DNA from: Longimicrobiales bacterium
GTDB taxonomy: Bacteria > Gemmatimonadota > Gemmatimonadetes > Longimicrobiales > Gaopeijiaceae
Direction: 5' to 3'
Length of the DNA stretch: 64,000 bases
Assembly: GCA_965238005.1 (NCBI GenBank)
Contig: OZ250165.1
Span: 832,001-896,000, forward strand
The position numbers were made by a program, and so were the translations under genes. The notes beneath the pieces are model-generated. The model made no database searches and was not told the origin of the DNA. It saw nothing but the letters and a program-made list of their open reading frames with translations. Of this stretch, positions 32,604-60,854 are shown piece by piece. Position 1 is the first letter of the stretch. Each line of letters opens with the position of its first letter.

Positions 32604-35321
<2,718 letters not shown>

Positions 35322-36771: not shown

Positions 36772-36782
36772 AGGAGACGTCC

Positions 36783-38383: not shown

Positions 38384-38447
38384 ACGCGGATCGGCGAGCG
38401 TCGGTGCTGATCGGCGAGTGCACATCAGACAACGGGGTGCATGTGCA

Positions 38448-38653: not shown

Positions 38654-38687
38654 AGCCATGGATCCCTACGGGAAGGTTGTCACAGCG

Positions 38688-40205
38688 ATGCTGAGGCCGG
38701 CGACGCTCGTCCTCATGGGCCTCGCTTCGGCGGCCGCGATCGCCCACGCCTTCCGGGCGCCGTTCCCCGGACCCGGCGGCAACCCCGTGCTGGACTTGAT
38801 CGCCTACCACGATCCGGGCTTCCACACGGTGATCCGCGTCTGGTACTACGTGGCGCCCGCCGTCGCCGTGGTGCTCTTCGGCAGCCTCGGCCTCTCGGTC
38901 TGGAGAGTCTGGCTCCAGCCACGAGCGGGAGGAGGGCGCCGGGGCACGTTGCCACCCTGGCCCGCCTCGCCCGAGGACGAGACACCATCGCTGGTGATCG
39001 GCGAGCTCCACCATCCCGTCGTCCCGCGCGAGAGCGAGCGGCCGTCCTGGCTCGTCGTTCCCGAGACGGGGCTCTACACCGGCGTGCTCATCGTCGGGGC
39101 GGTCGGCTCCGGCAAGACCTCGGCCTGCATGTATCCGTTCGCCCAGCAGCTCCTCTCGTGGCAGGCCGACCGCCCCGCACGCCGGGCCAGCGCCTTGGTG
39201 CTCGAGGTCAAGGGCGACTTCTGCCACAGCGTGCGGGGGATCCTCGAGGAGGCCGGCCGCGTGGACGACTACCTGGAAATCGGGCTGGACGGGTCCTGGC
39301 AGTGGAACCCGCTCGACGATCCGCTGCTCGACACTTACTCGCTCGCCTACAGCGTCTCATCCCTGATCAACCAGCTCTTCGGCAAGAGCCGCGAGCCATT
39401 CTGGCAGCAAGCCTATACGAATCTCGTGCGCTGGATCGTCGAACTGCACCGGCTCCTGCCGGGGGGCTGGGTCACGCTGCAGGACGTCTACCGCTGCACG
39501 ATCGACGCGGAGCTGTTCGCGCAAAAGATCCGCGCGGCCCGGGACCTGGTGGCTGAGGCGTGCCCGGCGCGCGTCGTCATCTCCCACGACGACATGATCG
39601 GCCATCCGGAAGCGCTGAATGACTGGGTCTGGATATATACCTCCGGTGAGGACACGGTGACGTGCCGGCTCGACCCGGTCCTCCGGGATCGGCTCGCCGA
39701 GCTCGAGATCCCGTTCGAGACCGAGGAAGGCGAGAGCGGCGCAGGCAGCGAACTCAGGGAGCAGGTGGAGGCGATCGAGCGCTGGTACCTGAATGACTGG
39801 ATGGCGCTCGATGCCAAGCTCCGCACCTCGATCGTCGAGGGCATCTCCGTCTTCCTCTCGCTCTTCGACCAGCCGCAGGTCGCGAGCGTGTTCTGTCCGC
39901 CGCCGCCGGAATCGGATGAGTCCCCATCTATACATATAGGTACCGATGCGCCCGACGAGGATGCGGCGGCCGTCCGGCCCATGCCGGGCCTCCGCCGCCG
40001 GCTGCCGCCGCTCGCCGAGTTGATCGAGGGCGGCAAGGTCCTCGCGCTCAACATGCCCGCGGGCGCGAACCCGGCGCTCGGACGCGCGATCGGCGTGCTG
40101 CTCAAGAACGCCTGGATGCAGGCGCTGCTGCGGCGGCCCGCCGAGGCCGCCCGCCGGCCCGGCCGCTACCTCCGGCCCGCCGTGTTCATCTGCGACGAGT
40201 ACCAG
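38688..40205 (+). pseudogene. virD4: VirD4 copy 2, 5' part, interrupted at DEYQ
   Basis: Colinear with copy 1 up to FICDEYQ, then unrelated AT-rich sequence. Confidence 0.85.
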
Positions 40206-40575
40206 TCCGACAAGAAAAATATCATAACGCTATATGTAATAATTAGTTATGATGCCGTCGCTTGCCCGCGATCACCCCTGCAATCACCCTTTGCGCGGCG
40301 GGTAGCGGAATCCCATGGAGCAGCCCCGTTCGCCGTTCAGTCGTTCGGCCGTCCCGTGGGACCCGGCGTCGTCCCATAGCGACTCCCGGCAACTCAAGTT
40401 CGACAGCGGCCGCATCTCGGGGATGAGACACGCCTCTCAAAATGGCCGGCCCGCAGGGCGGCTGTCCAGTGAAGCAACCGGCAACCCGAAAGCCGCGACC
40501 ACATCGCGCGTCCCTGCAAGTTATCATGATGAGCGACGGGACCCTGGCCACACTTCGGGCGAGGAGAAGGGGATT

Positions 40576-40908
40576 ATGACCAAGGCAGACCTGGTCGAGC
40601 AGGTCGCCGATGCGGTTGGACCGCGAGTCACCAAGAGGGACTGCGGGCTGGTGGTCGACGCCTTCCTCGACGCTGTGAAGGACGCGCTTGCGCACGGGGA
40701 GGGCATCGAGCTCCGGGGCTTCGGCACCTTCAAGGTGCGGCACCGCAAGGGCCGCAAGGCCCGCAACCCCAGGACCGGCAAACCTGTGGAGGTCCCGCCC
40801 CGCGCGGTGCCCGTCTTCCAACCGTCGAGACACCTCCGCAGGCAGGTGGACCGAGGCCACAGCTCGTCCGTCACGGGGGAGCCCTTGGAGGCCGTTGGCA
40901 AGCCGTAG
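40576..40908 (+). CDS. HU/IHF-family DNA-binding protein
   Basis: MTKADLV...IELRGFGTF...ARNPRTG...PVFQPS. Confidence 0.88.
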   Translation: MTKADLVEQVADAVGPRVTKRDCGLVVDAFLDAVKDALAHGEGIELRGFGTFKVRHRKGRKARNPRTGKPVEVPPRAVPVFQPSRHLRRQVDRGHSSSVTGEPLEAVGKP

Positions 40909-41509
40909 CCTGCCCGCCACGACCGCGTCGCTGGCCGTGGGTGGAAGGGCTGGCTCACGCCCCTTAAGGTGCGTAAGCCAGCCCACGCAGTGTTTAACAC
41001 TGCGGCCTGGCAAGGGGGCGCTACGCCCCCCCTTAGACCCCCCGGCTTCCCGTCCCGCTGCCGGAGCGGCGGGCGGCGGGGTGCGACGCCCCCCGAACCC
41101 CGTCGCCGGTGCTGCGGCTGAGCGCTGCCCCGTCGTGGCCGACGATCCGGCCGACGTGATCCTCAACGGACCCGCAGCCGGGAACTTGGTCGTGACCGGC
41201 AAGGGCGTGAGGTTCCGCCCGTGGGGGAGTCCCGGCCGACGGGGTGGCGACCGCCGGGGCGACCGGCCCCGAGTCCCACCGAGCCCGGAACACCGCTCAC
41301 ACGGGGATTCCGGGCGTTCCGGGGCCGGTTGGGCGGAATCCGAGGCCGTAGGATCGCCTGTGACGCGCGAACTCGACACCCGGAGGGGTATCCCCCGGTT
41401 TCCCGACCGCCCTTCGCAGCCCCTTTGCTCGAATCACAGCAAAGAGGTTCTGCCCTGGGACGTTTCGGCTGCTCTTCAACGCACTGGTCGCGCGGCGTAG
41501 ATTGCTATC

Positions 41510-42325
41510 ATGATTAAGCTTACCGACATCTGGCCAGTCGAGAACCCGCACGATTACAAGGTGCATTTCGCGACTCGGAACAAAGATCGCACTGAGCCGC
41601 TTCTCGTCCTGGCACGCGACGCCGATGAATGGAAACGGTGGCAGGAATACCGCCCGAAAACGGACCAATTCAACCGGAAGTTCATCTTCTCGCTCGCGCG
41701 TGTCTACGACGAGGAGGACAGTTGGTTGTTTGGCGGGGTCTTCCGAGTCATTGAGCGCCTGCCCGAACGATACCAGGTTGAACTGACCGAACAAGGTGGA
41801 CCATTCGTTCGTCGCCTGAAGCTTCGCTCGCCCTATCGCGGCCGGGCGCGACGCGTGAACATGGAGGGGAGACTTGACGAGTTCGAGGTACAGGAAATCC
41901 TCCCCGAGCGCTATTCGGGCCTTCCATTCCCGGGCTTCGAGAGCATCGACCTAGCGTTCAGCGAGTTCGAGGTCCTCCACCGCAACAACCGCCCGGACTG
42001 GCAGGCGGCTTTGGAGAGCGTCAGTGGCGTTTACTTGATTACCGCGCGTACCCGAAGCGCGGTCCGTCAATACGTTGGCGCTGCCTACGGGGAACAGGGC
42101 ATCTGGTCGCGGTGGGTTGATTACCTGAAAACCGGTCACGGCGGAAACGCCGCGCTTCGAGAGCTTATTGGAAACGGGGGGTTACGTTACTGTCGCCGGC
42201 ACTTCCGGTTTGCTCTCCTCGAACACATGTCCCGGAATACGCTGGACGGGTCGATTCAGGACCGCGAGGCGCACTGGAAGAGAATCCTCGGAACCCGGGA
42301 CCGAGGAGGACTCAACCGGAACTAG
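41510..42325 (+). CDS. GIY-YIG nuclease family protein
   Basis: GVYLI...QYVG...RW...E...LN motif. Confidence 0.8.
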   Translation: MIKLTDIWPVENPHDYKVHFATRNKDRTEPLLVLARDADEWKRWQEYRPKTDQFNRKFIFSLARVYDEEDSWLFGGVFRVIERLPERYQVELTEQGGPFVRRLKLRSPYRGRARRVNMEGRLDEFEVQEILPERYSGLPFPGFESIDLAFSEFEVLHRNNRPDWQAALESVSGVYLITARTRSAVRQYVGAAYGEQGIWSRWVDYLKTGHGGNAALRELIGNGGLRYCRRHFRFALLEHMSRNTLDGSIQDREAHWKRILGTRDRGGLNRN

Positions 42326-43062
42326 CACTAGCGCTAGGCCAACCACATGAGGTCCCAGCATGCGGGTGCGCCTTCTCGAGACCCCAGCCTCCTGCGCCGC
42401 TGGACGCCGCGCCCGAACCCGCCGCCGGTGTGCTCGTGGCGGAGCGGCACCACCCCGGCCCGCTCCCGGCGCGATGCCGACGCACCATGCCACCGGTTGG
42501 AGGCATGGTGTCGGTCGCCCGGATCCCGAATTGCCGCGTCGAGGCGGGAGCCGGGCGACAGCCCGTGGACTTGCGCCGGAGCGCGGACCTGTCGGGGGTC
42601 GAAGGGGCGGAGCCCCTCGCCAGCCCTTGCCGGGGACCCGCGAAGCGTGGCCCCAAGGGGTATGCTGGCTTAGCCACATTAGAGTGGCTCAAGCCAGCCC
42701 TGCGGACGCCTCCGAAACGCGCTCCGAGCAGCCACCCGGAACAGCGGGCGAAGGGCCAACTCTTGCCCGCCAGATCGGCCGCCCGGTCGTTCATGAGCCG
42801 GTCGCTCCGAGGACCGAGAGCGGGGGCGGTAACGACGACGGCGGCGACTACGATGATCGGCGGGGAGCCCACCAGGCGCTCGTTCACGACGGCGGCGCTC
42901 TCTGCCGCGTGGCCGCGTTCCGCCCTACCGTAACCCCTCGGCGACCGGCGATCGTGCGTCAGAGGCGATCCTACGGCCCGCAGCTTTCCGGAAATGCCCG
43001 TGGAACGCCCCGGAAACGGCCTCTGAGCCCGTCGCGGAACCGGCGGCACAACAGGGGGGTGG

Positions 43063-44229
43063 TTAGGCTTCGGTGCTCGCTCTCCGCCCCGCCAGATACT
43101 CCGCCCACTGCTCCATCAGGACGCGGCGGCGCTCGAACAGGTCCGAGCGGGCGTAGGCGGCCTCCACCCTGTTGCGGACCGCGTGCGCCAGCGCCGCCTC
43201 CATAACCGCGTGCGGCGCGTCGGTGCGCTCCGCCGCCCAATCGCGGAAGCTCGAACGGAAGCCGTGCGGCACGGTCGCGATCCCGAGCGCCTTGAGAAGC
43301 CCGGCGAACTCGAAACTCGACAGCACCAGCCCCCGCGCCGACGGGAACACCCACTCCGAACGAGGCGCGTACGCCTTCGCCTCGGCCAAGATCTCCCTCG
43401 CTCGCGCCGACAGCGGCACCCGGTGCTCGCGCCGGCTCTTCATCCGCTCCGCCGGAATCGTCCACTCCCCGGCCTCCATGTCGATCTCCTCCCACCGCGT
43501 CCCACGCACCTCGCCCGACCGGCAGGCCGTCAGCACGAGGAACTCGATGCCCAGCTTCACCGCGACCCTCGCCTCGGCCCGCCGCACGGCCTCGACCGCC
43601 GCGGCCACCTCCCCGTAGGGCAGCGCCTTGTAGTGCTTCTGGATGCGAGGGGGTTTCGGCAACGCCGCCCCGATCGCATCGCCCGCCGGGTTGTCCACGC
43701 GGTAGCCCTGCGCGATCGCCCACCTCATCACCGTCGAAATCCGCTGACGGACCCGCTTGGCCGTCTGGTGCTTCTCGTTCCAGATCGGAAGCAACACGCC
43801 CATCACATCGGCCGATGAAATCCGGTCCACCCGCTTCCGCCCGACCCCCGGAAACGCGTACATGTGTAGCGTTGACATCCACTGGCCCGCGTGCCTGTCG
43901 GTCCAGGTCGGACGGTGCATCGCGAACACCTTGGCGGCCGCCTGCTCGAACGTCGGCACCGAGCGACGGGGTGTTGCCCTGGGGTCCCCGCCCGCTCTGG
44001 CCACCTTGCGGTTGGCCAGCGCGGCGTCGCGGGCCTCGGCCAGCGTCACGAGGCGGACGGGACCGAGCCCCAATTCTCTGCGCTTGCCGTGGACGAACAG
44101 GCGCTGGATCCACTGCTTGTAGCCGGACGGCTTGACCCGGAGCACGAGGCCGTGCTCGTCCCAGTAGAGGCCCGGCTGCCGGACGCTCCGCACGAAGGCG
44201 GCTGTGAGTTTCTTGCCGTGTCTGCCCAT
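43063..44229 (-). CDS. P4-family tyrosine integrase
   Basis: RELGLGPVRLVTLAEAR, TACRSGE, PHGFRSSFRDWA, ALAH, AAYARSDL. Confidence 0.92.
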   Translation of the reverse strand: MGRHGKKLTAAFVRSVRQPGLYWDEHGLVLRVKPSGYKQWIQRLFVHGKRRELGLGPVRLVTLAEARDAALANRKVARAGGDPRATPRRSVPTFEQAAAKVFAMHRPTWTDRHAGQWMSTLHMYAFPGVGRKRVDRISSADVMGVLLPIWNEKHQTAKRVRQRISTVMRWAIAQGYRVDNPAGDAIGAALPKPPRIQKHYKALPYGEVAAAVEAVRRAEARVAVKLGIEFLVLTACRSGEVRGTRWEEIDMEAGEWTIPAERMKSRREHRVPLSARAREILAEAKAYAPRSEWVFPSARGLVLSSFEFAGLLKALGIATVPHGFRSSFRDWAAERTDAPHAVMEAALAHAVRNRVEAAYARSDLFERRRVLMEQWAEYLAGRRASTEA

Positions 44230-44384
44230 CTGGTCACCCTTTCGCGATCACCCCTCTGATCACCCTTTCGGTGCTGGAACACACCGAACGCTCTGACACG
44301 GCAGTATAATATAAGTAGTTTTATAACAACAACTTCACTTGCTCTACGGGATTGCCTTAAACCTATCTGGACGGTGTGCAGAAG

Positions 44385-44921
44385 GAGTACCAGGCGTTCG
44401 CCACCGTGGGCCAGGACGACCCCGCTGGCGACGAGAAGGCCTTCGCGCTGACGCGGCAGTGCCGCTGCATCCCGATCGTCGCCACGCAGTCGATCTCCTC
44501 GCTCCGCTCCGTTCTGTCCGGCACGGACGCCTGGCGCACACTGGTCCAGACGCTCCGCACCCGGATCTTCCTGTCCTTGAGCGACGAGTCCTCGGCCAGG
44601 ATCGCGTCGGAGATGTGCGGCAGCGTCATGAAGACGCAGCCCTCCTACACGTTCACCGAGACCACGGGCCGGCCGGAGTTCTCGCTCCTGTCGGGACGCG
44701 CCGGAGGCGGACGGGGCACGATCGGCGCGAGCAAGTCGTTCCGGCAGGCGCGGGAGCCGGTCTTCACGCCCCGGGACTTCAGCCTCCTCGCCAACTATCA
44801 GGCGATCTGCCTGCCCTACGATGGCACGAAGTCCCTGCCGGCCCGGCGCGTCTACCTGAAGCCCCACTACCTGCCGAGGGGCACGGGTTACTGGCGGTTC
44901 CGCGAGGAGGGCCGGCTGTGA
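44385..44921 (+). pseudogene. virD4: VirD4 copy 2, 3' part
   Basis: Resumes at EYQAFATVGQDD and closely matches the copy 1 C-terminus. Confidence 0.85.
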
Positions 44922-45901
44922 AGCGCGCGAGCGGGATCGCGCACCTGCGACCGTTCCTGCCGGGCCTCGAGGCCGTGCTCGAGGATCCGGAGGTCTCCGA
45001 GCTCATGATCAACGGGCCGGGGAACGTCTGGGTCGAACGCGGCGGCGAGCTCGAGCCCATCGAGGCGCCGGCTCTCACCGCCGCCGCGCTCTACCGGGCG
45101 GCGATCCACATTGCGCGGCCGCTCGGGCTCGATCCCGCCGCCCGGCCCGTCCTCGACGCCCGGCTCGACGACGGCTCGAGGGTCGCCATATGCACGCCGC
45201 CCGCGAGCCCCCACGTGGCGATGACGATCCGCCGGTTCGGGGGCCGTGCGTTCTCCGCCGAGGACCTCGTCGGCCAGGGGGCTCTCCCCGAGACGGTGTT
45301 CCGGGCCGCCCGCGACGCCCTCCATTCCCGGCGCAACATCCTGGTCTCGGGAGGCACCGGCTCGGGCAAGACCACACTGCTGAACGCCCTGATCGAGCTG
45401 CTCCCCGAGGAGGAGCGGATCGTCGCCATCGAGGACACGCTCGAGCTCAGGATCGACCGGACCAACTGCCTGCGCTTCGAGGCCGGAGCCGCCGGCCTCG
45501 ACTCACCCGTGTCGATCCGCGACCTGGTCCGCCATGCGCTCCGCCACCGGCCCGACCACATCGTCGTCGGCGAGGTCAGGGGCGGCGAGGCCGCCGATCT
45601 GCTGCAGGCGCTGAACACCGGCCACGGCGGATCGCTCACCACCGTGCACGCGAACAACGCCCGCTCCGCGCTGTCGCGACTGGCGAGCTGCGCCATGCAG
45701 GCCGGAGGCGCCCTCCCCTGGGAGGTCACCTGCCGAGGCGTGGTCGACGGCATCCATCTGGTCGTCCACATGACCCGTCGAGGGGGCCGACGCTTCGTCG
45801 AGGAAGCGCTCCGTGTGAAGGGCTACGAGGCGGCCGCCAACCGCTGGCTCACCGAGACGATATGGAGGAAGGACGATGAAGAACAAACAGAAAAGGAGTG
45901 A
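44918..45901 (+). CDS. virB11: VirB11/CpaF-family ATPase, copy 2
   Basis: Same motifs as copy 1; GTG start overlaps the virD4 stop. Confidence 0.88.
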   Translation: MKRASGIAHLRPFLPGLEAVLEDPEVSELMINGPGNVWVERGGELEPIEAPALTAAALYRAAIHIARPLGLDPAARPVLDARLDDGSRVAICTPPASPHVAMTIRRFGGRAFSAEDLVGQGALPETVFRAARDALHSRRNILVSGGTGSGKTTLLNALIELLPEEERIVAIEDTLELRIDRTNCLRFEAGAAGLDSPVSIRDLVRHALRHRPDHIVVGEVRGGEAADLLQALNTGHGGSLTTVHANNARSALSRLASCAMQAGGALPWEVTCRGVVDGIHLVVHMTRRGGRRFVEEALRVKGYEAAANRWLTETIWRKDDEEQTEKE

Positions 45902-45905
45902 GGAC

Positions 45906-46109
45906 ATGGAAAGCGACGAGAAGATCGTCCGCGTCGAGACGCTCGACGACTTCGACCGCGAGCTCGCGCGCGACGGGGGCGAGGCCCTCGAGGTGCCAGC
46001 ATCGCTGGCCGAGCAGTACGGCCTCTTCCCCGAGGACGTGGGCACCGAAGACGAGATCCGGGACGCCTCGGAGGATCCGCACGGCCGGGAGGAGGAGGAG
46101 GACCGATGA
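45906..46109 (+). CDS. Small acidic hypothetical protein, copy 2
   Basis: Paralogue of 12105-12302. Confidence 0.6.
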   Translation: MESDEKIVRVETLDDFDRELARDGGEALEVPASLAEQYGLFPEDVGTEDEIRDASEDPHGREEEEDR

Positions 46110-47134
46110 AACACGACGAATACCACCGCCAGTTCGCCGATGCGATCATCGAGCAGATCCGCCAGGGCACGGCACCGTGGCAGAAGCCCTGGGGGCCGGG
46201 CGAGCGTGTGCTCCCCGCTAACGTCGATACCGGACGCTCCTACGCGGGAGGCAACAGCCTGCACCTTGCCGCCGTCCAGCAGGAGCGCGGCTACGGCGAC
46301 GTGCGCTGGGGAACCTACCGCCAGATCCAGGCCCGGGGCGGACAGGTGCGGAAGGGCGAGCAGGGCACCCGCATCCTCTCATTCCAGGACCACCGGAGGA
46401 TCGCCGTCACCGACGAGCGCGGCCGGCCCGTCAGGGACAACGAAGGCAAGCGCGTCTACCGCCACGAGCGGATGCGCGCGCCCGTCGTCCGGCAGTACAC
46501 CGTCTTCAACGCAGAGCAGGCGGACGGGCTCCCGGCCCGGCCCGCGCCCGCTGCCGAGCCGCTCTGGAAGGCCCACCAGGAGGCCGAACGCGTCCTCGCG
46601 GACAGCGGCGTCCCCGTCCGTCACGTGGCGGGGGACCGGGCGTACTACAACCTGAACCGCGACGAGATCGTGCTGCCCGAGCGGGCACAGTTCCCCTCTG
46701 CCAATCACTACTACCAGACCGCGCTCCACGAGCTGGGGCACAGCACGGGCCACCCGGAGCGGATGAACCGCGCCACCCTCGTCGAGGGGATGAGCGAAGG
46801 GTTCGGCTCGCCGGCCTACGCGAAGGAGGAGCTCCGCGCCGAGATCAGCGCCATGATGACGGGCGAGCGGGTCGGCGTGGGCCACGACCCGAGCCGGGGC
46901 GCCGCCTACGTCGAGGGCTGGGTCGCCGCCCTCAAGGAGGACCCCCGCGAGATCCGCCGCGCCGCGGCCGACGCACAGAAGATCTCCGACTTCGTGCTCG
47001 CCCGAAGCCGTGAGCGCGAGCCCGAGCGCGAGCCGGCGCCCGTGGCGGCCACCCGCGCGCCCGCCCGGGAGCCCGCCGTCCGGCCGGAGCTTCCGCTGCC
47101 GCTACCGAACCGGAGCTTCGGCCCGCGCCGCTGA
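46106..47134 (+). CDS. ardC: ArdC antirestriction protein, copy 2
   Basis: Paralogue of 12299-13327 with the HELGH motif. Confidence 0.88.
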   Translation: MKHDEYHRQFADAIIEQIRQGTAPWQKPWGPGERVLPANVDTGRSYAGGNSLHLAAVQQERGYGDVRWGTYRQIQARGGQVRKGEQGTRILSFQDHRRIAVTDERGRPVRDNEGKRVYRHERMRAPVVRQYTVFNAEQADGLPARPAPAAEPLWKAHQEAERVLADSGVPVRHVAGDRAYYNLNRDEIVLPERAQFPSANHYYQTALHELGHSTGHPERMNRATLVEGMSEGFGSPAYAKEELRAEISAMMTGERVGVGHDPSRGAAYVEGWVAALKEDPREIRRAAADAQKISDFVLARSREREPEREPAPVAATRAPAREPAVRPELPLPLPNRSFGPRR

Positions 47135-48358: not shown

Positions 48359-48925
48359 GCCCAGACCCTTGCCGGGGCTGGACGCGTCCCCGGAAGACGC
48401 ACTCCCGATGTGGAGCTGGTGAGCCTCGAACTACGACTGGTGAAATGGATCGTCGGTGCCGCGCTGGCCGGCGCCGCCCTCGTCATCGCGGCCGTATGGC
48501 TCTTCGGCGGCCAGCCTTACATCCCCGTTTTTGGGGCTTAGGAGCCGTCCCAAGAAGGCTTAGCAGCTTCTGGGCGCCTAGAAGCCGTTTACCCCCCCGG
48601 ATCCGTCTCCAGGTCCTCGACGTCGGCCTGCTCCGCGCCGCCCTCGCCCTCCTGGAAGCCGAACTCGGCCGCGATGGACCAGCTGCAAGCGACCGGCAGC
48701 CCCAAGTCGCCGGTCGCGTCCAGCGTCGCGCCGAGGTCGGCCGATCGCCAAATCAAGACCACAGGCTCGCCGCCGAGCATCGTGATCGTCACGTCTCCTC
48801 CTCCTGGGCCATTCGGCAGGGTTGACCTCATCCGGGAATCGTGACCGTAGGGACCCGTAACCACGGGACACAGCGGCCGATATAGCCGGTGGAGGCCCGT
48901 CCGGTCTGGCCCGCCCGGGATCCAC

Positions 48926-49095
48926 CTACGCCTCGTGGGGGTCGGGCATGCGGTAGCCGACGCCGTGCTCGTTGAAGATGTAGGCGGGAGTGGAGGCGGT
49001 GTCGCCGAGCTTGCGGCGGAGCCTCCTGACCGCGGTTCGCACGCGGTCGGCGTCGCCGGACTCGCGCCTGCCCCACACCTGACGGAGCAGGCCTC
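48926..49095 (-). pseudogene. OmpR/KdpE-type winged-helix C-terminal fragment
   Basis: Minus strand reads QVWGRRESGDADRVRTAVRRLRRKLGD...YIFNEHGVGYRM. Confidence 0.55.
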
Positions 49096-49226
49096 GGCGA
49101 ACCCGTTCCTCCGCCGGACTGCCGGGGACTGGGGGATAGCGCCGTCCGGGCCGCCTGTCACGACCATGACATGCGAGTTTTTCGCATTGTCACGGTATTG
49201 GTCACTAAAACCGCGTAGATTAGAGT

Positions 49227-49260
49227 CAAGCTCCCGATAGTTGTAACTATCGGGAGCAAC
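49227..49260. other. lox-like recombination site A (13-8-13)
   Basis: CAAGCTCCCGATA-GTTGTAAC-TATCGGGAGCAAC. Confidence 0.8.
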
Positions 49261-49308
49261 GCCGCATGGAAAGTGTGACGAAGCGGCTGCACGTCAACCC
49301 TTCGGCGC

Positions 49309-50301
49309 TCACTTGCGCTTCTGCAGCCGTGCGAGCTGCGCGGCGCCGTTCCGCTGCGCGAGAAGCCGCTCGCCGTAGCGCTGCACCATCGAGGCGCTCT
49401 TCCAGCGTCCGGCCTGCATGATTGCGGGGATCCCGATCCCCGAGGCGATCATGTCCTGGGCCGCGCCCACGCGCGGGCTGTGCCCGGAGATCCGCCGCAC
49501 CATGTCGGAAGGCAGGCCCGCGCGCTCGGCCATCGCGCGGTAGATGCGGGGCACCTGGCTTGCGTCGAGCGCCTCGCCCAAGGCGCCGTCCTTCGTGACC
49601 GAACGGAACAGCCTGCCCGAGGCGATGCCGCTCCGGTCGAGCCACGCCCGCACCAGCTTCACGGTGTCGCGGTGGAGGTAGAGCGTCGCGCCGCCGCCGC
49701 CGGAATCGGTCTTGCCGCACCGCACGAGGAGCGAGGCCGATCCTCCCCTATCCACGGTCATGTCAACGACTTGCAGCGCGACCAGCTCGGATCGCCGGAG
49801 CATCGCGTCGTAGGCGACGGCGAGGAGGGCGCGGTTCCGCAGGTCGATTGGCCGGTCGCCCGCGGCCGCGATCAGGCGCCGCCGGAGCCTCCAGGTCAGC
49901 CCCTGTACCTGCCTCTGCCGAGACCCATTCCTTCGGCGCATGCGCTGGAGCGCCCGCTGCACGGCGGCGTGCTCGAGCGGGCTTTGCTCCCCGGCCGCCC
50001 TGTGCGCCACGGTGAGGCTGAAGACGTAGCGGCGCACGGTGGCCGGGGCCCGGCCACCGGCCATCGCATCGACGTACGCCGCCACCGTCTCCGCTCGCGC
50101 GGGCAGCGGCGAGAGGTCCCGCTCGGCGCACCACGACGCGAACGCGTCCAGATCCGCCCTGAGCGCCCGGACGGTATGGCCGCTGAGGGCACCCCGGGCG
50201 TCATCGAGGCAGGCATCGAGGCGTTCTCCGGTTTGTGACAATGTGATGGCACGGTCTGAAGGACCTGACACGCGTCCCGGACCCGTAATCCGCATAAACA
50301 C
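49309..50301 (-). CDS. Cre-like tyrosine recombinase
   Basis: SAM-like N-domain, DAMLRRSEL, GKTD, SGHSPRVGAAQDM, IMQAGRW, MVQRY (Cre-type R-K-H-R-W-Y). Confidence 0.88.
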   Translation of the reverse strand: MFMRITGPGRVSGPSDRAITLSQTGERLDACLDDARGALSGHTVRALRADLDAFASWCAERDLSPLPARAETVAAYVDAMAGGRAPATVRRYVFSLTVAHRAAGEQSPLEHAAVQRALQRMRRRNGSRQRQVQGLTWRLRRRLIAAAGDRPIDLRNRALLAVAYDAMLRRSELVALQVVDMTVDRGGSASLLVRCGKTDSGGGGATLYLHRDTVKLVRAWLDRSGIASGRLFRSVTKDGALGEALDASQVPRIYRAMAERAGLPSDMVRRISGHSPRVGAAQDMIASGIGIPAIMQAGRWKSASMVQRYGERLLAQRNGAAQLARLQKRK

Positions 50302-50330
50302 CTCCGCAACAACAACATACGTGAATTCAG

Positions 50331-50364
50331 CAAGCTCCCGATAGTTACAACTATCGGGAGCTTG
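50331..50364. other. lox-like recombination site B (13-8-13), inverted relative to A
   Basis: CAAGCTCCCGATA-GTTACAAC-TATCGGGAGCTTG with perfect arms; spacer is the reverse complement of the site A spacer. Confidence 0.85.
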
Positions 50365-50389
50365 AAAACCCTGTCGCGAAAGGTTTGGG

Positions 50390-53300
50390 ATGTCGGAGGA
50401 AACGTGCTGGTCTGGTCAGCCGCGGGCAGAAGGTGGCGGAATCACTGGTCTCCGGCGCCAAATCGCGCGCCAGCCGGGACTTCTTGTGGGCGCCGGGCTG
50501 GTGTTTGCGCGTACCGCGTCCGCGACATGGCGGGGATTGCTCGTCGCGTCGCTCCTCGCCCCCGCTGCGGTGGCTTCCGCCCGCCCCGCCTCCGCACAAG
50601 CCGAGATCGAACTCCTGAGTGCGACGCTCACGCCGGCACAACAGCCGCCGCTGACGCTCACCGACGGTAGGATCCAGACCTTCATCGGCTGCCAGCAAGC
50701 TGTGTCCGAGCGCCGATGCAGCACCCACATGACGGACCACGACTTCACCGAAGAGGCCGTCAACTACATTGTCAAGACCTTAGTGTATGTACGCGAGGAA
50801 AGCGCTGAAAATGTCGCCCCAGCTATCTCGATAGTTTTCAATCCGGGGTTGTCGACCCGTCTCCAGACGATGACGCTGCAGGTCGGGGATTCTGCCTTGG
50901 CTTTCCCGGCGGCACGTGGATCCTACGATGGCAACAGCTTCTCTGATCGGACCTGGGATATTGGGTTCGAATGGACCGAAGGAACCCCCGTATCGATCCG
51001 GCTGACGCGTCCGAACGTCGCCCCCACGGCGGTCGACGGTGGAGTCGGGACGTACCTGAACGAGGCGTACACGTTCGAGGCGTCGGATTTCGGGTTTTCG
51101 GACGTGGACGAGGAGCACGGCCAGAGCCTTCAGAACGTGAGGATCGTGGCGCTCCCCGCCTCGGGGACGGTGATGCTCGGAGGCACGGCGGTGACGGCCG
51201 GCGAGTCGGTGGCGAAGGGGGACCTCGACGCCGGACGGCTCACGTACACCCAGCCCGGCACCGACCCGGAGGATGCGAGCTTCACCTTCAAGGTGAGCGA
51301 CGGCACGGCGGAGAGCGATGGGCCGTACACGATGGACATCGAGGTGCGTTCCCCGGCGCCGGGGCCGCCGGAGAACCTGACCGCCGCCGCAGGCGACGGC
51401 GCGGCTACCCTTGGCTGGGAGGCACCGGCGAACAGCGGCGCCTCGGCGATCGTCCGCTACGAAGTCCGCCATGCGGCGGCCAACTCGGTGCCGATGAACA
51501 CGGCCTGGCAGTCCGTCGGGCTGACTTTGAGCCACTCGATCACCGGGCTGACGAACGGGCAGGTCTACACGTTTGAGGTGCGCGCGGTGAACGGCTCCAA
51601 CCCGGCCGAAGGCCCTGCGGCGGAGGTGCGGGCCACGCCAGCACCAGTCGTCTCCATCACCCCCGGTTTCCTGTCCGTTGCCGAAGATGCCGGCGAGGCC
51701 GTGCTGACGGTTTCGCTGCACCGGCCCGCCGAGTCCGCGCTGTCGGTTTCCTGGCATACGCAGGATGAACGCGCGGACGCGCCGAACGACTACACGGCCC
51801 GGCAGGATGCGGTGACTTTCGCCGCCGGTGAAGACCGGAAGACCGTTTCCGTGCCCATCGTGGACGACGCGGTGCGGGAGGACCCGGTCCATGACGTACA
51901 CGAGACGTTCTTCGTCATCCTCGAGGCAGGCCAGGGCTACAGCCGGAGCGACAGCTCGTACGCCCTCGTGGAGATCGTCGACAACGACGGAGACGCCGCG
52001 CCGGACGTGACGCCGCCGCGGCTCCTCCAAAGGACGGTGAACGGCACCACGCTGGTGCTTACCTACGACGAGACGCTCGACGACGCGTCGGTCCCGGCCC
52101 CGGGCGACTTCGTCGTTGCGGCGGCTGGGAACACAATCAACGTGACCCAAGTGAGCGTCGACGGATCGAGAGTGACGCTGACGCTGGCCGTCCCCGTCCA
52201 GCCCAGCCAGGCGGTGTCGATCGACTACACGCCGGGGGCGACCCCGATCCAGGACGCGTCGGGCAACGACGCGGGTCCGATCTCGGGCATGGACGTACGG
52301 CCGCCGCAGCTCACCCGGGCGACGGTGAACGCAAGCAGGCTGGTCCTGACCTACGACGAGACGCTTGACGGCGCGTCGATCCCGGCCCCGGGCGACTTCG
52401 TCGTGACGGCGGCGGGGAGCACGGTCGGAGTGAACGGTGTGAGCGTGGGCGGCTCGGCGGTGACGCTGACGCTGGCCACCGCCGTCCAGGCGAACCAGGC
52501 GGTGACGCTCGACTACACGCCGGGCGCGAGCCCGACCCAGGACGTGGCGGGCAACGACGCGGCGGCGCTCTCCGGGCAGGCCGTGACCAACAACACTCCG
52601 GGAAGCGGTGAAGGCAGCGGCGGTGGTACTGGTGATCCCTCGGTGCCGGGCGCACCTGCGTCCCTGACGGCGACGGCGGGGGACGAAGAGGTGGCGCTCG
52701 TCTGGAGCGCGCCCGCGGACGATGGCGGCGCACCCGTCACCGGCTACGAGTACCGCTACACGGTGGGAGACGCGGTGCCCGGGGATACGCCGTGGCAGTC
52801 CGCCGGGCTCAACCTCGAGTGGACGGTGACCGGCCTGACCAATGGCCAGCAGTATGCCTTCGAGGTGCGGGCGCTGAGCCGCGTGGGCGAGGGTGCAGCA
52901 CGGGGAGCCCTGGCCACGCCGGTTGGGCGGCTGGGCGTGCCCGCATCCCTGACGGCGACGGCGGGCGACGAAGAGGTGGAGCTGGCCTGGAGCGCGCCCG
53001 CGGACGATGGCGGCGCGCCCGTCACCGGCTACGAGTACCGCTACGCGGCGGGAGCTGCGGTGCCCGAGGATACGCCGTGGCAGTCCGCCGGGCTCAACTT
53101 CGAGTGGACGGTGACCGGCCTGACCAATGGCCAACGATACGCCTTCGAGGTGCGGGCGCGGAACCGCGTGGGCGAAGGCGAGGCGCGGGGAGCCCTGGCC
53201 ACGCCGGTGGGGCGGCCGGGCGTGCTAGCATCCCTGACGGCGACGGCGGGCGATGGAGAGGTGGCGCTCGTCTGGAGTGCGCCCGCGGACGATGGCGGCG

Positions 53301-55705
53301 CACCCGTCACCGGCTACGAGTATCGCTACGCGGCGGGAGACGCGGTGCCCGGGGAGACGGCCTGGCAGGAGCCGGACGGCGACCGGGCGGCGACGGTCAC
53401 GGAGCTGGAGAACGAGACGCGCTACGCCTTCGAGGTGCGGGCGCGAAACCGCGTGGGCGAAGGCGAAGCGGCGAAGACGACGGCCCTGCCGCTTCGGCTG
53501 CGGGCGGAGTTGTTCAGCGCGTCGTCGGCGGCGGAAGGCGAGGCGCTCGTGATCGGGGTGCGCCGGAGCGGGGGGCTCGCGGTTCCGGCCCACGCCTACA
53601 TCGGCGTGACGGACAGCGCGCTGCCCGGCGTGACCGCGACGGACGAGGGGCGCGACGACGGGCTCGGCCGCCACCGGCTGGAGTTCGCAGCTGGCGCGGC
53701 CGAGGCGACGGTCGCGGTCACTATCGCCTTCGACGGCGAGCTCCGACAGGACCGTGCCTTGACCGCGACGCTCGATTCCGCGGAAACGGAGGTCGACGGC
53801 GTAACGCGGGCCCATGAACTCGTCACCCCGACGCTGGTTGTTCCGGTGACGGAGGGGGACGCCGGGGTGTCGGTGGCCGATGCCCGAGTGCAGGGAGGGA
53901 GCGTGGTGCTGGCGTTCACGGTGAGCATGGACCGCACGCGGGACGCGGCTGTGCGGGTGGACTACGCCACGGAAGACGGTTCGGCCAGGGCCGGCGAGGA
54001 CTACACTCCGGTCACGGGGACACTGACGATCGCCCCCGGCGGGCGCGAGGGCACGGTGGAGGTGCCGGTGCTTCCGGCCCTGCACGTGACGGGCGAACGG
54101 ACGCTGACCCTGAAGCTGTCGAATGCCACCAACGCGGTGATCGACGACGCGTCGGCGACGGGCACGATCGTTCGCGAATCGGAGCTGCCCAAGGCTTGGC
54201 TGGCGCGGTTCGGGCGGACGGCCTCGGACCACGCGGCCCAGGCGATCGCGACGCGGCTCGAGGCCGGCCGGCGGGAGACACAGGTGACGGTGGCCGGCCG
54301 GCGTGTGGACGGGCTGTCGGTGGGCGGCCTGGTGTTGGGGGCGCTACCGTCGGGCGGATGGAGGCCGGCTTCGGCTGTTGAGGACATGGCGACCAGGCTG
54401 GCGGCGCCCGCTCTGGCGGCTTCAGGCGCATCGGGCGCGGGTCCGGGTGTACCGGGTGTGTCACCCGGCGCCTGGGGCGGGGCTCCGGGCACGTTGGACC
54501 GGGAGTCCTCCGTAGATGCCGGGCAGGCGTTGCGCCGGGCCGTGCTTCCCGACTTCGGGTCCCGCCTGCCGGGGGCGGAGGAAGCGCTCCTGGGCAGCTC
54601 ATTCTACGTCGAAGGCGGAGCACAAGCCGCCGAGGGCGGCGGCACGTGGGCCGCATGGGGCGACGTGGCTGCGACCCGTTTCGAGGGCGATGCGAACGGG
54701 CTTGCGCTCGACGGCGACGTGGTGACGGGCACGCTAGGCCTGGACCGGCAGTGGCGGGCACTCCTGGTCGGGATCGCGCTCTCGAGGAGCAGCGGGGAGG
54801 GCGCCTACGGTCCGGGCGCGGGGACGATCGCGAGCACGCTGACGAGCGTCCACCCGTACGCGCAAGTACGGCTCGCGGACCGCGCGCAGCTGTGGGGCGC
54901 GGCGGGCTGGGGCCGGGGCGGGCTCGAGATCACGCCGGAGAGGGGGACCGCGCTCGAGGCGGATCTCACGAACAGGATGGGGGCACTCGGCGGGCGGGCA
55001 GTGCTCGCGGGCGCCGGTGCGCTCGAGATCGCGCTCCGCTCCGACCTGCTCTGGACGGAGACGTCCTCCGACGAGACCACTGGGCTGGCGGAGGCCGTGG
55101 GCACGGCGAGCCGCGGGCGGCTGATGCTCGAGGGCGCGGGCCGGATCCGGGGGCTCGGTGGCGTCGTGCGGCCCAGGATCGAAGGCGGCGTCCGCTACGA
55201 CGGCGGGGACGCGGAGACCGGACGAGGGTTCGAGGTGGGCGGCGGGCTCGGCTGGGCCCGGGGATCGCTCATGCTCGAGGCGAGCGGGAGAGTGCTCGTC
55301 GCCCACGCCGACGAGTCCTACGAGGAGTGGGGCTACAGCGGCTCGCTCGTCTACGCGCCGGGCGCCGACGGCCTCGGTCTCCAGATGCGGGTCGGATCCA
55401 CAGCGGGGGCGGCGGCGATGGGCGTCCGTAGCCTGTGGGCTGCAGAGAACGCGAGCGGCCTGGTGCGCCCGGGCCACGGCGGGATGCCCCTCGCGCAACG
55501 GTTCGACGCCGAGGTCGGCTACGGGCTCGGGGGCGGAGCACTGTGGTACCCGTACTTCGTCGCCGACGACTCCGGGCTGACGAGGTTCGGCCTCGAGCTC
55601 ACCTCGGCAGACGTGCTCGGCGTCGGCCTCGAGTTCGGGCGAAGGGAGGGTGTGGACCTTGGGCCGGAGGACACCATGCTCCTCCGGGGGGAGCTCAGGT
55701 TCTAG
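50390..55705 (+). CDS. Large autotransporter-like adhesin (cadherin-like, 4 FN3, Calx-beta and 2 SwmB-like repeats, C-terminal beta-barrel)
   Basis: Signal-like segment ending ASAQA; FN3 repeats with 285-bp period (52661, 52946, 53231); LVLTYDETLD repeats; ends in ...GELRF. Confidence 0.8.
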   Translation: MSEETCWSGQPRAEGGGITGLRRQIARQPGLLVGAGLVFARTASATWRGLLVASLLAPAAVASARPASAQAEIELLSATLTPAQQPPLTLTDGRIQTFIGCQQAVSERRCSTHMTDHDFTEEAVNYIVKTLVYVREESAENVAPAISIVFNPGLSTRLQTMTLQVGDSALAFPAARGSYDGNSFSDRTWDIGFEWTEGTPVSIRLTRPNVAPTAVDGGVGTYLNEAYTFEASDFGFSDVDEEHGQSLQNVRIVALPASGTVMLGGTAVTAGESVAKGDLDAGRLTYTQPGTDPEDASFTFKVSDGTAESDGPYTMDIEVRSPAPGPPENLTAAAGDGAATLGWEAPANSGASAIVRYEVRHAAANSVPMNTAWQSVGLTLSHSITGLTNGQVYTFEVRAVNGSNPAEGPAAEVRATPAPVVSITPGFLSVAEDAGEAVLTVSLHRPAESALSVSWHTQDERADAPNDYTARQDAVTFAAGEDRKTVSVPIVDDAVREDPVHDVHETFFVILEAGQGYSRSDSSYALVEIVDNDGDAAPDVTPPRLLQRTVNGTTLVLTYDETLDDASVPAPGDFVVAAAGNTINVTQVSVDGSRVTLTLAVPVQPSQAVSIDYTPGATPIQDASGNDAGPISGMDVRPPQLTRATVNASRLVLTYDETLDGASIPAPGDFVVTAAGSTVGVNGVSVGGSAVTLTLATAVQANQAVTLDYTPGASPTQDVAGNDAAALSGQAVTNNTPGSGEGSGGGTGDPSVPGAPASLTATAGDEEVALVWSAPADDGGAPVTGYEYRYTVGDAVPGDTPWQSAGLNLEWTVTGLTNGQQYAFEVRALSRVGEGAARGALATPVGRLGVPASLTATAGDEEVELAWSAPADDGGAPVTGYEYRYAAGAAVPEDTPWQSAGLNFEWTVTGLTNGQRYAFEVRARNRVGEGEARGALATPVGRPGVLASLTATAGDGEVALVWSAPADDGGAPVTGYEYRYAAGDAVPGETAWQEPDGDRAATVTELENETRYAFEVRARNRVGEGEAAKTTALPLRLRAELFSASSAAEGEALVIGVRRSGGLAVPAHAYIGVTDSALPGVTATDEGRDDGLGRHRLEFAAGAAEATVAVTIAFDGELRQDRALTATLDSAETEVDGVTRAHELVTPTLVVPVTEGDAGVSVADARVQGGSVVLAFTVSMDRTRDAAVRVDYATEDGSARAGEDYTPVTGTLTIAPGGREGTVEVPVLPALHVTGERTLTLKLSNATNAVIDDASATGTIVRESELPKAWLARFGRTASDHAAQAIATRLEAGRRETQVTVAGRRVDGLSVGGLVLGALPSGGWRPASAVEDMATRLAAPALAASGASGAGPGVPGVSPGAWGGAPGTLDRESSVDAGQALRRAVLPDFGSRLPGAEEALLGSSFYVEGGAQAAEGGGTWAAWGDVAATRFEGDANGLALDGDVVTGTLGLDRQWRALLVGIALSRSSGEGAYGPGAGTIASTLTSVHPYAQVRLADRAQLWGAAGWGRGGLEITPERGTALEADLTNRMGALGGRAVLAGAGALEIALRSDLLWTETSSDETTGLAEAVGTASRGRLMLEGAGRIRGLGGVVRPRIEGGVRYDGGDAETGRGFEVGGGLGWARGSLMLEASGRVLVAHADESYEEWGYSGSLVYAPGADGLGLQMRVGSTAGAAAMGVRSLWAAENASGLVRPGHGGMPLAQRFDAEVGYGLGGGALWYPYFVADDSGLTRFGLELTSADVLGVGLEFGRREGVDLGPEDTMLLRGELRF

Positions 55706-57396: not shown

Positions 57397-58997
57397 GAGT
57401 CTGCGCCGCAGAACCCTGCGGCGGCTATCTTTGGTGGTAGCGAAGGCATTGGGAAGGCTTGCGGATCACCGAGGGGGGTGAATGGGAACGACATTTCGAC
57501 CGTACGATCCGGAGCAGATGTTGTTGCTGCCTCCGGATCTTCGGGAGTGGGTGTCGGAGGGTCATTTGGCGCACCATGTGAGCGACCTGGTGGACGCGGT
57601 GGAGCTGAGCGCGTTCTACGGGCGGTACCGGGGGGACGGGCGGCGCAACTCGCCGTACGACCCTCGGATGATGGTCAAGGTGCTGATCTACGCGTATGCG
57701 ACGGGCACCTTCTCGTCGCGGAAGATGGCGAGGAAGCTGGAGGAGGATGTCGCGTTTCGGATGCTGGCGGCGGAGAACTTCCCGAAGCACCGGACGCTGT
57801 GCGAGTTCCGCAAGCGCCATCTCGGGGATTTCCGGGCGGTGTTTGTGGAGGTGGTGATGCTCGCGCGGGCCTTGGGGCTGGCGGGGCTTGGCAGGGTGTC
57901 GGTGGACGGGACGAAGGTTCGGGCGAACGCGAACAAGCGCAAGGCGATGAGCTACGGCCGGATGGTGACCGGGGAGCCTCGGCTGGAGGCGGAGATCCGG
58001 GGGCTGTTGGAGAGGGCCGAGGCGGTGGACGAAGCGGAAGACGAGCGCTACGGCGAGGAAGCATGCGGAGACGAGGTGCCGGAGGAGCTCAAGCGGCGCG
58101 AGGACCGGCTGGCGGCGATCCGGGAGGCGAAGGCGCGCCTGGAAGCCGAGCAGAGAGCGGCGGACGACGCACGGGGCCGCAAGCCGGGGCAGACGCGCAA
58201 CCCGAAGGGCGGCAGGCCCTACAAGCGGGAGTACGGAGAGCCGGACGAGGCGGCGCAGAGCAACTTCACGGACCCTGAGAGCCGGATCATGAAGACGAGT
58301 TCGGAGGGGTTCCAGCAGTGCTACAACGCACAGACGGTCGTGGAGGGGGAGAACCAGCTGGTGGTCGGGGCCGAGGTGACGGACAACGCGAGCGACCAGG
58401 GCCAGCTGGTGCCCATGGTCGACGCGGTGGCGCAAGCGTACGGCGAGACGCCGGCGCAGGTGCTGGCGGACACGGGCTATTGCAACGAGCGGGATCTCGA
58501 GGAACTGGAAGAGCGAGACATCGACGGGTATGTGGCGCTGGCCCGGGAGGGCAAGGCCGCCCCCACGGTTGACAAGGAGGAATATCCGGCGAAAGTCCGC
58601 ATGGCGGAGAAGCTGGCGAGCGAAGATGGCCGCAGACGCTACGCACGGCGAAAGTCGCAGGCCGAGGCGCCCATCGGCTGGATCAAGGAAGTGATGGGCT
58701 TTCGACGATTCAGCTTCCGGGGCCTCGAGAAGGTCCGGGCCGAGTGGACCCTCGTGTGCCTGGCACTCAATGTGAAGCGGCTGCACACCCTTCAGGCGGC
58801 ATGACTGCACGAGGGTTCACCCGCATCTGCCGGCGCGAGGGCTCTCGTAGCTCTCTTGCCCCCCCAACGCATCCATTCCGCTCTCCCGATCCGTCGCAGA
58901 CACAAGTCCTCAACCTCCCAATCACCCGGATCCGCCTCGCCGCGGACGGCTCGATGACCATTCGGCTCAGTCAGCTGTGCTTCTGCGGCGCAGACTC
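57397..58997 (+). mobile_element. IS1182-family element (transposase 57482-58804)
   Basis: IRs GAGTCTGCGCCGCAGAA / TTCTGCGGCGCAGACTC; CTAG on both sides; VDGTKVRANA, TDPESRIM, YNAQ, ADTGY motifs. Confidence 0.9.
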
Positions 58998-59509: not shown

Positions 59510-60854
59510 TGGAGCTGTCCCGTTTCAGTGGACGGGTGAACACTGAGGTTTATAGTCTGTCCCCCTCGCTGGGGAGAGGAAAGCTTCCCCCGCGCAGCGG
59601 GGGAGTAAAGGGCAACTTGGCCACGCAGGTTTCTCATGCTGCCGCTCCGTGGCGACGCTCGAAGTTGATGGGCGACAGCTGACCCAGTGCCGAGTGTCGC
59701 CTCCGGGGGTTGTAGAAGCCCTCGATGAAGTCGAACACGGCCATCTTCGCCTCGGCCTGGGTCCGGAAGCGCTGCCGGTCGAGTAGCTCGCACTCGAGCG
59801 TCGCGAAGAAGCTCTCGCACATCGCGTTGTCGTAGGCGTCGCCCACGGAGCCCATCGAGGGCCGCACACCGACATCGTTGCAGCGTAGGCCGAAGGCGAT
59901 CGAGGTGTACTGGGTTCCCTGATCACTGTGATGGATGACGCATTCGGGCCGGCGCTGCCAGGTCGCCATGTTCAGCGCGTCCAGGACGAGCTCGGTGCGC
60001 AGGTGCGTAGCCATCGACCACCCGACCACCCGCCTGCTCCAGACGTCGAGCACAACCGCGAGGTACAAGAACCCCGCCCAGGTCGGGATGTAGGTGATGT
60101 CGGCCACCCACAACTGGTCTGGCCCGTCTGCGCTGAAGTCCCGCTCGATGAGATCCGGCGCGGGACGGGCGTCCTCGTTGCGCCTGGTCGTCTTCGGGCC
60201 GCGCCGCCTCCGGCTAGCTCCCACAATCTCGGCCTGCTTCATGAGCCGGCCCACCCGCTTCTCACCGACCCGCTCGCCAGCTTCCTTGAGGTCCGCGTAG
60301 ATGCGGGGCCGGCCATAGACCCTTCGGTTCTCGCGCCAGACCGTCTCGATCCGCTCTGTGAGCTCCTCATCTCGCTTCGCCCGAGCCGAAGGCTCGCGAT
60401 CCAACCAGGCGTAGTAGCCGCTGGGGGAGAGATCCAGCACACGGCACATCGCCCGCACAGGGAAGTCGGCCTGATTCGTCTTCATGAACTCGAACCCCGT
60501 TCCGGGATCGAGTTGCTCTCCCGAGCAAACCAGGCGGCGGCTTTTTTTAGAATCTCCTGCTCCATGCGCAGACGCTTGTTGTCACGCCGAAGCTGCCTGA
60601 GTTCCCCACGCTCCTCCGTCGTCAGCCCGTCACTGCGACGGCCTTCATCCAAGTCAGCTTGTTTGACCCAGTTCCGTATCGCCCCGTTTGAGGGCTCGAA
60701 CTCCCGGGCCAGCTCCTCCACGGAGCGGCCCGACCTGACCAACTCGACCATCTGCCGCCGAAACTCCGGCGGGTACGGCGCATGTGTTCTTGGCATCGTG
60801 GACTCCTCCTGTCTCCCTCACTACTGAGGTGTCCACCAAAGCGGGTCAACTCCA
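59510..60854 (-). mobile_element. IS3-family element, intact (orfA 60482-60796, orfB 59634-60485)
   Basis: TG...CA IRs, AAT duplication, A7 run near the orfA/B junction, WVADITY / HSDQGTQY / DNAMCESFF. Confidence 0.92.

Follow-up and report, generated by a model that had tools for sequence, protein, structure and literature searches.

Known recombination systems and the Longimicrobiales locus

Cre of bacteriophage P1 is a two-domain tyrosine recombinase with a 34-bp lox site, built of two 13-bp arms around an 8-bp spacer (13-8-13), near its gene. In P1, lox serves cyclization and dimer resolution. The subject of this work is a Cre-type recombinase gene and the two lox-like sites that flank it in a Longimicrobiales bacterium, within a stretch of 64,000 nucleotides (assembly GCA_965238005.1, contig OZ250165.1, positions 832,001 to 896,000) that is called the window throughout. 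The enzyme type, the site geometry, and the closeness of site to gene are those of Cre/loxP. Unlike P1, which has one lox ~430 bp upstream of cre, the window has two inverted sites that bracket the gene, and its spacer is nearly palindromic, with asymmetry in the central 2 bp only. We consider it likely that this is a self-contained DNA flip cassette, that is, a Cre-type gene placed between inverted copies of its own 34-bp lox-like site. Its three core features are as follows, in window coordinates.

49309..50301, minus strand: Cre-type tyrosine recombinase gene, 330 aa counted from the GTG at 50301; the sole open reading frame (ORF) between the sites
49227..49260, no strand assigned: Site A, a 34-bp lox-like 13-8-13 site 3′ of the recombinase gene, with its outer arm toward the former regulator side; homologous to the downstream (DN) sites of 45 related loci
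50331..50364, no strand assigned: Site B, a 34-bp lox-like 13-8-13 site 5′ of the recombinase gene; homologous to the upstream (UP) sites of related loci

Three further groups of inversion systems help to place this arrangement. The H-segment of Salmonella is inverted at hix by Hin, a serine invertase dependent on Fis and an enhancer, whose gene lies inside the ~1 kb invertible segment. The window resembles it in having a recombinase gene inside a segment with short inverted sites, one of which abuts the 5′ end of the gene. The far end of the H-segment faces a surface-protein operon whose expression is set by orientation. In contrast to Hin, the window enzyme is a Cre-type tyrosine recombinase, and a promoter reading out of its segment is hypothetical. 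On the yeast 2-micron plasmid, the FRT targets of FLP lie in 599-bp repeats and inversion serves copy-number amplification. FLP is also a tyrosine recombinase encoded between inverted targets and inverting its own segment; the window cassette differs in being chromosomal, multi-copy, and located between surface-protein and regulator genes. In Escherichia coli, fimS (FimB/FimE) and ipuS (IpuA/IpuB) are likewise inverted by tyrosine recombinases near the target. There the Fim-type recombinase genes lie outside a promoter element of ~300 bp, whereas here the recombinase gene itself would invert and the sites are lox-like. ipuS is described as driving a LuxR-type regulator and the autotransporter UpaE (PMC6083910). 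That pairing matches the regulator and autotransporter-like adhesin described below and makes ipuS the nearest functional analogue.

A screen for Cre-type enzyme/site pairs sought single palindromes at most 1 kb from the gene, and inverted pairs around a gene are unmentioned in the available part of that paper (PMC10250229). The terms Gemmatimonad, Longimicrob, Roseomonas, sponge, and Acetobacteraceae are absent from one of its text supplements. Full-text literature searches returned no account of a Cre-type gene with inverted lox-like sites on either side, and none of inversion switches for sponge or Gemmatimonadota symbionts. DNA inversion switches and Cre-type recombinases are each known; what these searches did not turn up is a Cre-type gene in its own invertible segment, with many copies in one genome, each next to a giant adhesin-like gene and a sensor-regulator that co-evolves with it.

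A Cre-type recombinase between two inverted lox-like sites

Comparison of the window recombinase with solved structures places it next to Cre. The best 17 hits are all Cre or its engineered derivative Tre (E 1.3e-31 to 2.5e-30, residues 34-319), with XerD following at 6.6e-07, and the protein is 31.4% identical to P1 Cre over 83% of its length. Pfam recognizes PF00589 (Phage_integrase, 2.2e-18) and PF02899 (SAM-like N domain, 1e-4); all Pfam hits on the protein are tyrosine-recombinase domains, and none is a serine recombinase domain of the Hin/Gin type. No NCBIfam family scores above its cut-off, the Xer models reaching 41-47 bits against cut-offs of 220-335. The catalytic residue set of the group, in Cre numbering, is R173, K201, H289, R292, W315, and Y324 (PMC10250229). 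These residues pair with R169, K197, H274, R277, W300, and Y309 of the window protein in a hand count on the HMMER alignment. A first reading of the DNA alone, which we refer to as the sequence-only reading, had remarked on a likeness to Cre that included the Trp, and the full alignment of the hexad together with the E-value to Cre bears it out. By sequence comparison, the window protein has every testable feature of the Cre-type group and is closer to Cre than to the Xer and integrase families.

The likely start codon is the ATG at 50295, which lies 5 nt after a GGAGG (50305-50301), a spacing kept in relatives. Against five intact relatives, the gene has a dN/dS of 0.29-0.41; comparisons with the frameshifted L024 and OWN815 copies were set aside as meaningless. 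The window recombinase gene is intact and, judged by these ratios, under purifying selection.

The sequence-only reading had also described two 34-bp sites of loxP-like 13-8-13 geometry in inverted orientation. The coordinates and letters of both sites were confirmed exactly in the window sequence, the palindromes adjoin the gene at distances of 29 nt (site B side) and 48 nt (site A side), and the 8-bp spacers are exact reverse complements of each other. A repeat finder reports a perfect 32-nt inverted repeat at 49226-49257 and 50334-50365, and it shows site B as a perfect 16-2-16 palindrome and site A as a 13-2-13 palindrome. Because the palindromes reach into the spacer, only the central GT/AC dinucleotide gives the sites a direction. 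Compared by eye over the whole 34-mers, sites A and B differ at 3 positions when read inverted and at 5 when read direct. The site core pattern with a free center has two matches in the window, where 100 shuffles give an expectation of 0.00, and in the genome-wide search (4,839,169 bases) it matches sites A and B only, with 0 control hits.

Set against lox of P1 (annotated halves, AF234172.1), the sites are identical at 14/26 arm positions and 2/8 spacer positions. The earlier claim of no likeness between the arms and loxP therefore holds only in part: 12 of the 26 arm positions do differ, and the other 14 are shared. With 6 mismatches per arm and a different spacer, orthogonality of the window enzyme/site pair to Cre is plausible. 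We infer that sites A and B are the sites on which the window enzyme acts.

Conservation of the site pair in the family

A homologue scan restricted to one genome per species gave 79 loci. About 50 loci are at 70-96% identity, nearly all of them in Longimicrobiales metagenome-assembled genomes (MAGs) and often several per genome. Further relatives come from Vicinamibacterales, Latescibacterota, Rariloculaceae, Poriferihabitaceae, and Pseudomonadales MAGs, and homologues at 29-51% identity come from Acetobacteraceae, Roseomonas (one on a plasmid, L074), Magnetococcales, and others. A metagenome scan gave 77 loci; 2 of these are close (71% and 78% identity), an inverted pair is present at L089, and the window locus is not among them.

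Whether homologues keep paired flanking sites, a check named in the sequence-only reading, can be answered for a close set of 54 loci (L008-L058 and three copies from the window's own genome). The site-core expression matches on both sides of the gene in 47 of the 54, and 45 of these were accepted as real pairs. Spacing is regular: ~31 nt lie between the upstream site and the start codon, and 47-79 nt between the stop codon and the downstream site. Loci with a single site are mostly damaged by truncation, a contig end, or an insertion sequence (IS), as in L011, L020, L053, L058, and the copy at the start of the window's own contig; L051 and L052 lack one site without apparent cause. As a separate observation, several long-read assemblies end in, or a few kb from, a module (L013, L019, L058, L012).

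In all 45 pairs, the partner spacers fit each other better inverted than direct; reverse complementarity is perfect in 29 pairs and broken by no more than one mismatch in 43. The 45 pairs comprise 17 spacer types, and shuffled partners reached the observed fit in 0/5000 trials, a result that was the same when the 39 distinct pairs were used. Among 55 distant homologues (29-51% identity; 59 scanned, 6 short-flanked), none has an inverted pair of at least 14 nt within 500 nt on each side, and 10 have a single upstream 13-8-13 lox-like palindrome. The absence of the pair from distant homologues indicates that it is a derived and maintained feature of one clade.

Natural inversions

The ancestral layout is a giant adhesin-like gene, a site, cre, a second site, and a regulator with GAF, PAS, kinase, receiver, and winged-helix-turn-helix (wHTH) parts. 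In four loci (L011, L021, L066, and the contig-start copy of the window's own genome), the segment is flipped relative to orthologous or paralogous loci, and the breakpoints are inside the sites. Between their sites, L021 and L025 align collinearly (2936-4079, 92%). The upstream flank of L021 is the reverse complement of the downstream flank of L025 (96.6%), and the converse comparison gives 88.7%. The same flipped relation is found for L020 against L021 and for L066 against both L008 and L025.

The window's own genome provides a precise case. A paralogue at C1:815240-816212, which precedes the window by ~16 kb, is flanked by an inverted pair of its own, and the contig-start copy (C1:1-2494) is 99.3% identical to this 815-kb copy (C1:813652-816297). 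The 5′ site of the contig-start copy joins the reverse complement of the regulator-side flank of the 815-kb copy (98.6%, 1540 nt). The site at this junction, C1:973-1008, is an exact hybrid that combines the regulator-side outer arm with the gene 5′-side inner arm of the 815-kb copy. In another MAG, L011 is the full inverted form of this own-genome paralogue locus and has an IS in the 5′ end of the gene. The two sister cassettes at C1:1-2494 and C1:813652-816297 carry part of the regulator and stand in opposite configurations, one being cut by the contig start; they could be a real duplication or the assembly trace of a mixed population. The 815-kb recombinase copy appears frameshifted.

The flipped relatives are what site-specific inversion would be expected to produce. 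In our judgment, it is very likely that the family inverts through its Cre-type enzyme. Seven read sets contain the window stretch, and in all four that were compared with it, Logan unitigs end inside the sites (e.g., 49255/49228 and 50363/50336). A 31-mer graph is too short to span a perfect 32-nt inverted repeat, so the unitigs are uninformative on orientation.

Alternative explanations

Four other explanations of the locus were weighed against a flip cassette. The one that survives best, although we regard it as unlikely, is that the recombinase acts between loci as a genome-wide shufflon, swapping giant genes between regulatory contexts or producing large chromosomal inversions, with flipping of its own gene as a side reaction. 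Such activity would be compatible with a flip cassette. Seven loci lie on one 2.7-Mb contig (CBDCKJ010000003.1), and identical sites and spacers recur at several loci. Discordance is seen in two of 406 locus pairs, with recombinase and regulator identities of 80% and 98% for L024-L050 and of 95% and 83% for L031-L033, and these differences of >12 points hint at exchange of one part between modules. Assemblies also break at or near modules (at the window's own contig start and, for L013, L019, and L058, at contig ends), and the 5′ part of the giant gene is replaced in L077. However, plain repeats are also expected to break contigs, all four resolvable rearrangements are simple 1.1-kb inversions between partner sites, partner spacers co-vary within loci, and no junction between different loci has been demonstrated.

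A small IS-like mobile element, with 34-bp terminal inverted repeats and the tyrosine recombinase as its transposase, inserting beside surface-protein genes, would account for a cassette that is multi-copy within genomes, occurs in several phyla, and is bounded by 32-nt inverted repeats. The window cassette also lies beside integrase, VirB11-like ATPase, ArdC, and TrbL genes. This explanation is nevertheless improbable given how the cassettes are placed. Their context is almost constant, and across 29 loci the recombinase co-diverges with the regulator (Spearman 0.88; Mantel r 0.84, reached in 0/2000 permutations), which argues against hopping of the 1.1-kb cassette alone. Alignments inspected by eye revealed no direct target-site duplication at the ends, and neither an empty site nor a cassette in unrelated context was found among the close loci. 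The distant homologues scanned likewise have no inverted pair (0/55), as described above.

We give similarly little credence to a recombinase that resolves multimers or maintains an integrated conjugative element or plasmid, in the role that Cre has in P1, with the second site as an incidental duplicate. In distant homologues, the gene does have at most one lox-like site, located upstream; L074, one of these homologues, comes from a Roseomonas plasmid, and conjugative-element genes adjoin the window copy. Yet an incidental duplicate would decay, and the pair is instead kept in 45 of the 54 close loci at fixed distances to the start and stop codons and with co-varying spacers; inverted forms exist as well. 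Finally, that the palindromes are operators of the winged-helix regulator, or RNA hairpins or terminators insulating the gene, is highly improbable: each site is a near-perfect hairpin-forming palindrome and site B would fall in the 5′ untranslated region (UTR) of the giant gene, but the inversion breakpoints and the hybrid site are located within these sequences, the 13-8-13 geometry and 14 of 26 arm positions are those of P1 lox, and neither palindrome is followed by a T-run or was picked up by a terminator scan.

Neighboring genes

The proposed flip cassette is bordered on one side by a giant gene and on the other by what is left of a regulator gene. In the family, these two neighbors and the recombinase gene make up a conserved module of three genes with a surface protein and a hybrid two-component regulator, a context that the sequence-only reading had missed.

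50390..55705, plus strand: gene of a giant secreted protein of 1771 aa that contains fn3, Calx-beta, and SWM repeats; divergent from the recombinase gene
48929..49090, minus strand: regulator remnant, the last ~54 codons with part of the winged-helix domain; a tblastn search with the L012 regulator matches residues 728-781 only
49100..49226 (left limit approximate), minus strand: outer flank of site A, the former regulator upstream region, with repeated GTGAC boxes and a TATCC box in the 44-locus alignment

Between site B and the conserved ATG of the giant gene lie 25 nt, and the start context is common to L025 and L021. The transcript of the giant gene must therefore start in the site or cross it. 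The C-terminal ~500 aa of the giant protein resemble an autotransporter beta-domain in language-model features only (score 0.96), which serves as a lead; neither Pfam nor NCBIfam finds an autotransporter domain in this C-terminus. Adhesion or eukaryotic-like repeats (fn3, Calx-beta, LRR, cadherin, SWM, CARDB) are present in 32 of 39 upstream divergent ORFs tested, these being 39 of the 40 that have at least 400 aa, with L013 omitted as a duplicate of L012. The giant-gene flanks are mostly unrelated in sequence among loci. Within the window's giant gene, a tandem duplication of fn3 units with a 285-nt offset and ~81-87% identity extends over 52000-53500 (genome 884003-885470).

An intact regulator has 781 aa with GAF, PAS, HisKA, HATPase_c, receiver, and Trans_reg_C domains in Pfam. 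Its gene starts ~180 nt beyond the downstream site and is co-directional with the recombinase gene in 43 of 82 loci; in three loci (L011, L021, and the contig-start copy), it is upstream and reversed, which is the flipped state. The regulator is missing from all 24 distant homologues checked. The OmpR-type regulator may bind at the GTGAC and TATCC boxes of the outer flank and at a GTCACA box within the segment, an arrangement that would suggest autoregulation or control of the cassette.

The window has lost most of this gene, and such a deletion means that its module is partly decayed. In the window ortholog L077 (OZ252251.1), most of the regulator is kept, and the upstream site is missing together with two thirds of the recombinase gene, counted from its 5′ end. 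In the giant gene of L077, the 5′ part has been replaced by a different, LRR-containing N-terminal region.

The wider surroundings of the window locus are rich in mobile DNA. Conjugative genes occupy 35761-47134, with TrbL/VirB6 at 35761-36771, an arm-type integrase at 43063-44229, a VirB11-like ATPase at 44339-45901, and ArdC at 46106-47134, and the window's own genome holds many paralogous copies of this type IV secretion system (T4SS) region. Two rve transposase ORFs with identical Pfam profiles (59634-60485 and 62875-63726) lie 3.2 kb apart, and other IS transposases at 57482-58804 and 33586-35040 add to an IS-rich region.

Modules of recombinase, sites, and regulator are also found in chromosomes assigned to other phyla, namely in L032 and L036 (Vicinamibacterales), L042 and L043 (Latescibacterota), and L028, L054, and L055. 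The regulator is present at 84-85% identity in L032, L042, and L043, and L036 and others are without it. This distribution points to recent horizontal transfer. Longimicrobiales and Palauibacterales genomes are mostly marine according to a published account (PMC11596202), and the record names Candidatus Palauibacter and Poriferihabitaceae suggest that the hosts may be sponge-associated.

Proposed mechanism and expression switching

By analogy with Cre at lox, four recombinase monomers bound to the four arms would synapse the two sites and exchange strands within the 8-bp spacers. With the spacers inverted, the outcome would be inversion of a 1.1-kb segment that holds the gene, its leader, and its 3′ end. 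Two stretches of this segment lie between the gene and the sites.

50302..50330, minus strand: conserved leader from site B to the start codon, a CG-TATGTT-GTTG motif followed by the ribosome-binding site; inside the invertible segment
49261..49308, minus strand: 3′ inner region from the stop codon to site A, a GC-rich hairpin-like stretch and a conserved GTCACA box in the 44-locus alignment

The 80% consensus of the leader over 44 aligned loci is.G TAT.TC.TTG....G..G..A.TTATGC. As the leader is both highly conserved and inside the segment, the gene is probably expressed from signals of its own in either state. What would change is the neighbor: orientation would decide whether the giant gene or the regulator receives transcription or promoter elements from the segment, and the result would be phase variation of the giant surface protein, the regulator, or both. 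We go no further than to propose that the orientation of the segment determines the neighbor to which it is coupled, and we leave the direction of the effect unspecified. For expression switching of the neighbors as the role of the cassette, we consider the case evenly balanced.

Promoter-like elements give this idea some form. Both sites contain an outward -10-like hexamer, which is TACAAT or TACAGT in most loci and TACAAC in the window. On the 3′ inner side, a hexamer starting with TTG lies 16-19 nt upstream of the -10-like box in 24 of 44 loci, and on the 5′ side this is the case in 0/44. Another sub-clade has TTCACA/GTCACA on the 5′ side, which is absent in the window. One hypothesis is that these elements make up a split promoter whose -35 half moves with the segment, in a pattern that is not general. 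Terminators were sought in 48800-50800, with 0 found.

Several observations count against a working switch. A search for sigma-70 consensus promoters returned 0 in 48800-50800, and the window has no TTG box, with scores of 2-3 of 6 for its hexamers. Read-through could be blocked by the conserved GC hairpin that follows the recombinase stop codon. One orientation is known for the window copy, and its ortholog L077 is collinear with it. Scored by regulator position, the assembled orientations in the family are 43 standard and 3 inverted, a bias which implies either that flipping is rare or that one state is dominant. The window locus may also be decaying, with the regulator lost here and the recombinase and site losses in L077. 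The proposal of the sequence-only reading that the enzyme flips its own 1.1-kb gene consequently stands at the level of the family, where four flipped loci and a hybrid site speak for it, and is plausible for the window copy, which has been assembled in one orientation only. On balance, we lean toward the view that the window copy is still active.

Implications for the family

The family is a source of candidate natural enzyme/site pairs for orthogonal genome engineering, among which at least 17 types of spacer occur, along with several variants of the arms. A broader and more speculative proposal, which we hold to be rather doubtful in its entirety, is that these loci form a new class of contingency switch. 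In such a switch, a self-flipping Cre-type gene would turn transcription, or the mobile half of a promoter, away from the signal-sensing hybrid kinase-regulator and toward the giant eukaryotic-like adhesin. With many modules in one genome, whose spacers are shared or have diverged, the surface of marine, probably sponge-associated symbionts would vary combinatorially and possibly in tune with signals. Conjugative elements would carry the modules from one phylum to another, and the family would amount to dozens of natural, mutually orthogonal Cre/lox-type pairs. If the switching role is true, it would explain variation of large eukaryotic-like surface proteins in uncultured marine symbionts.

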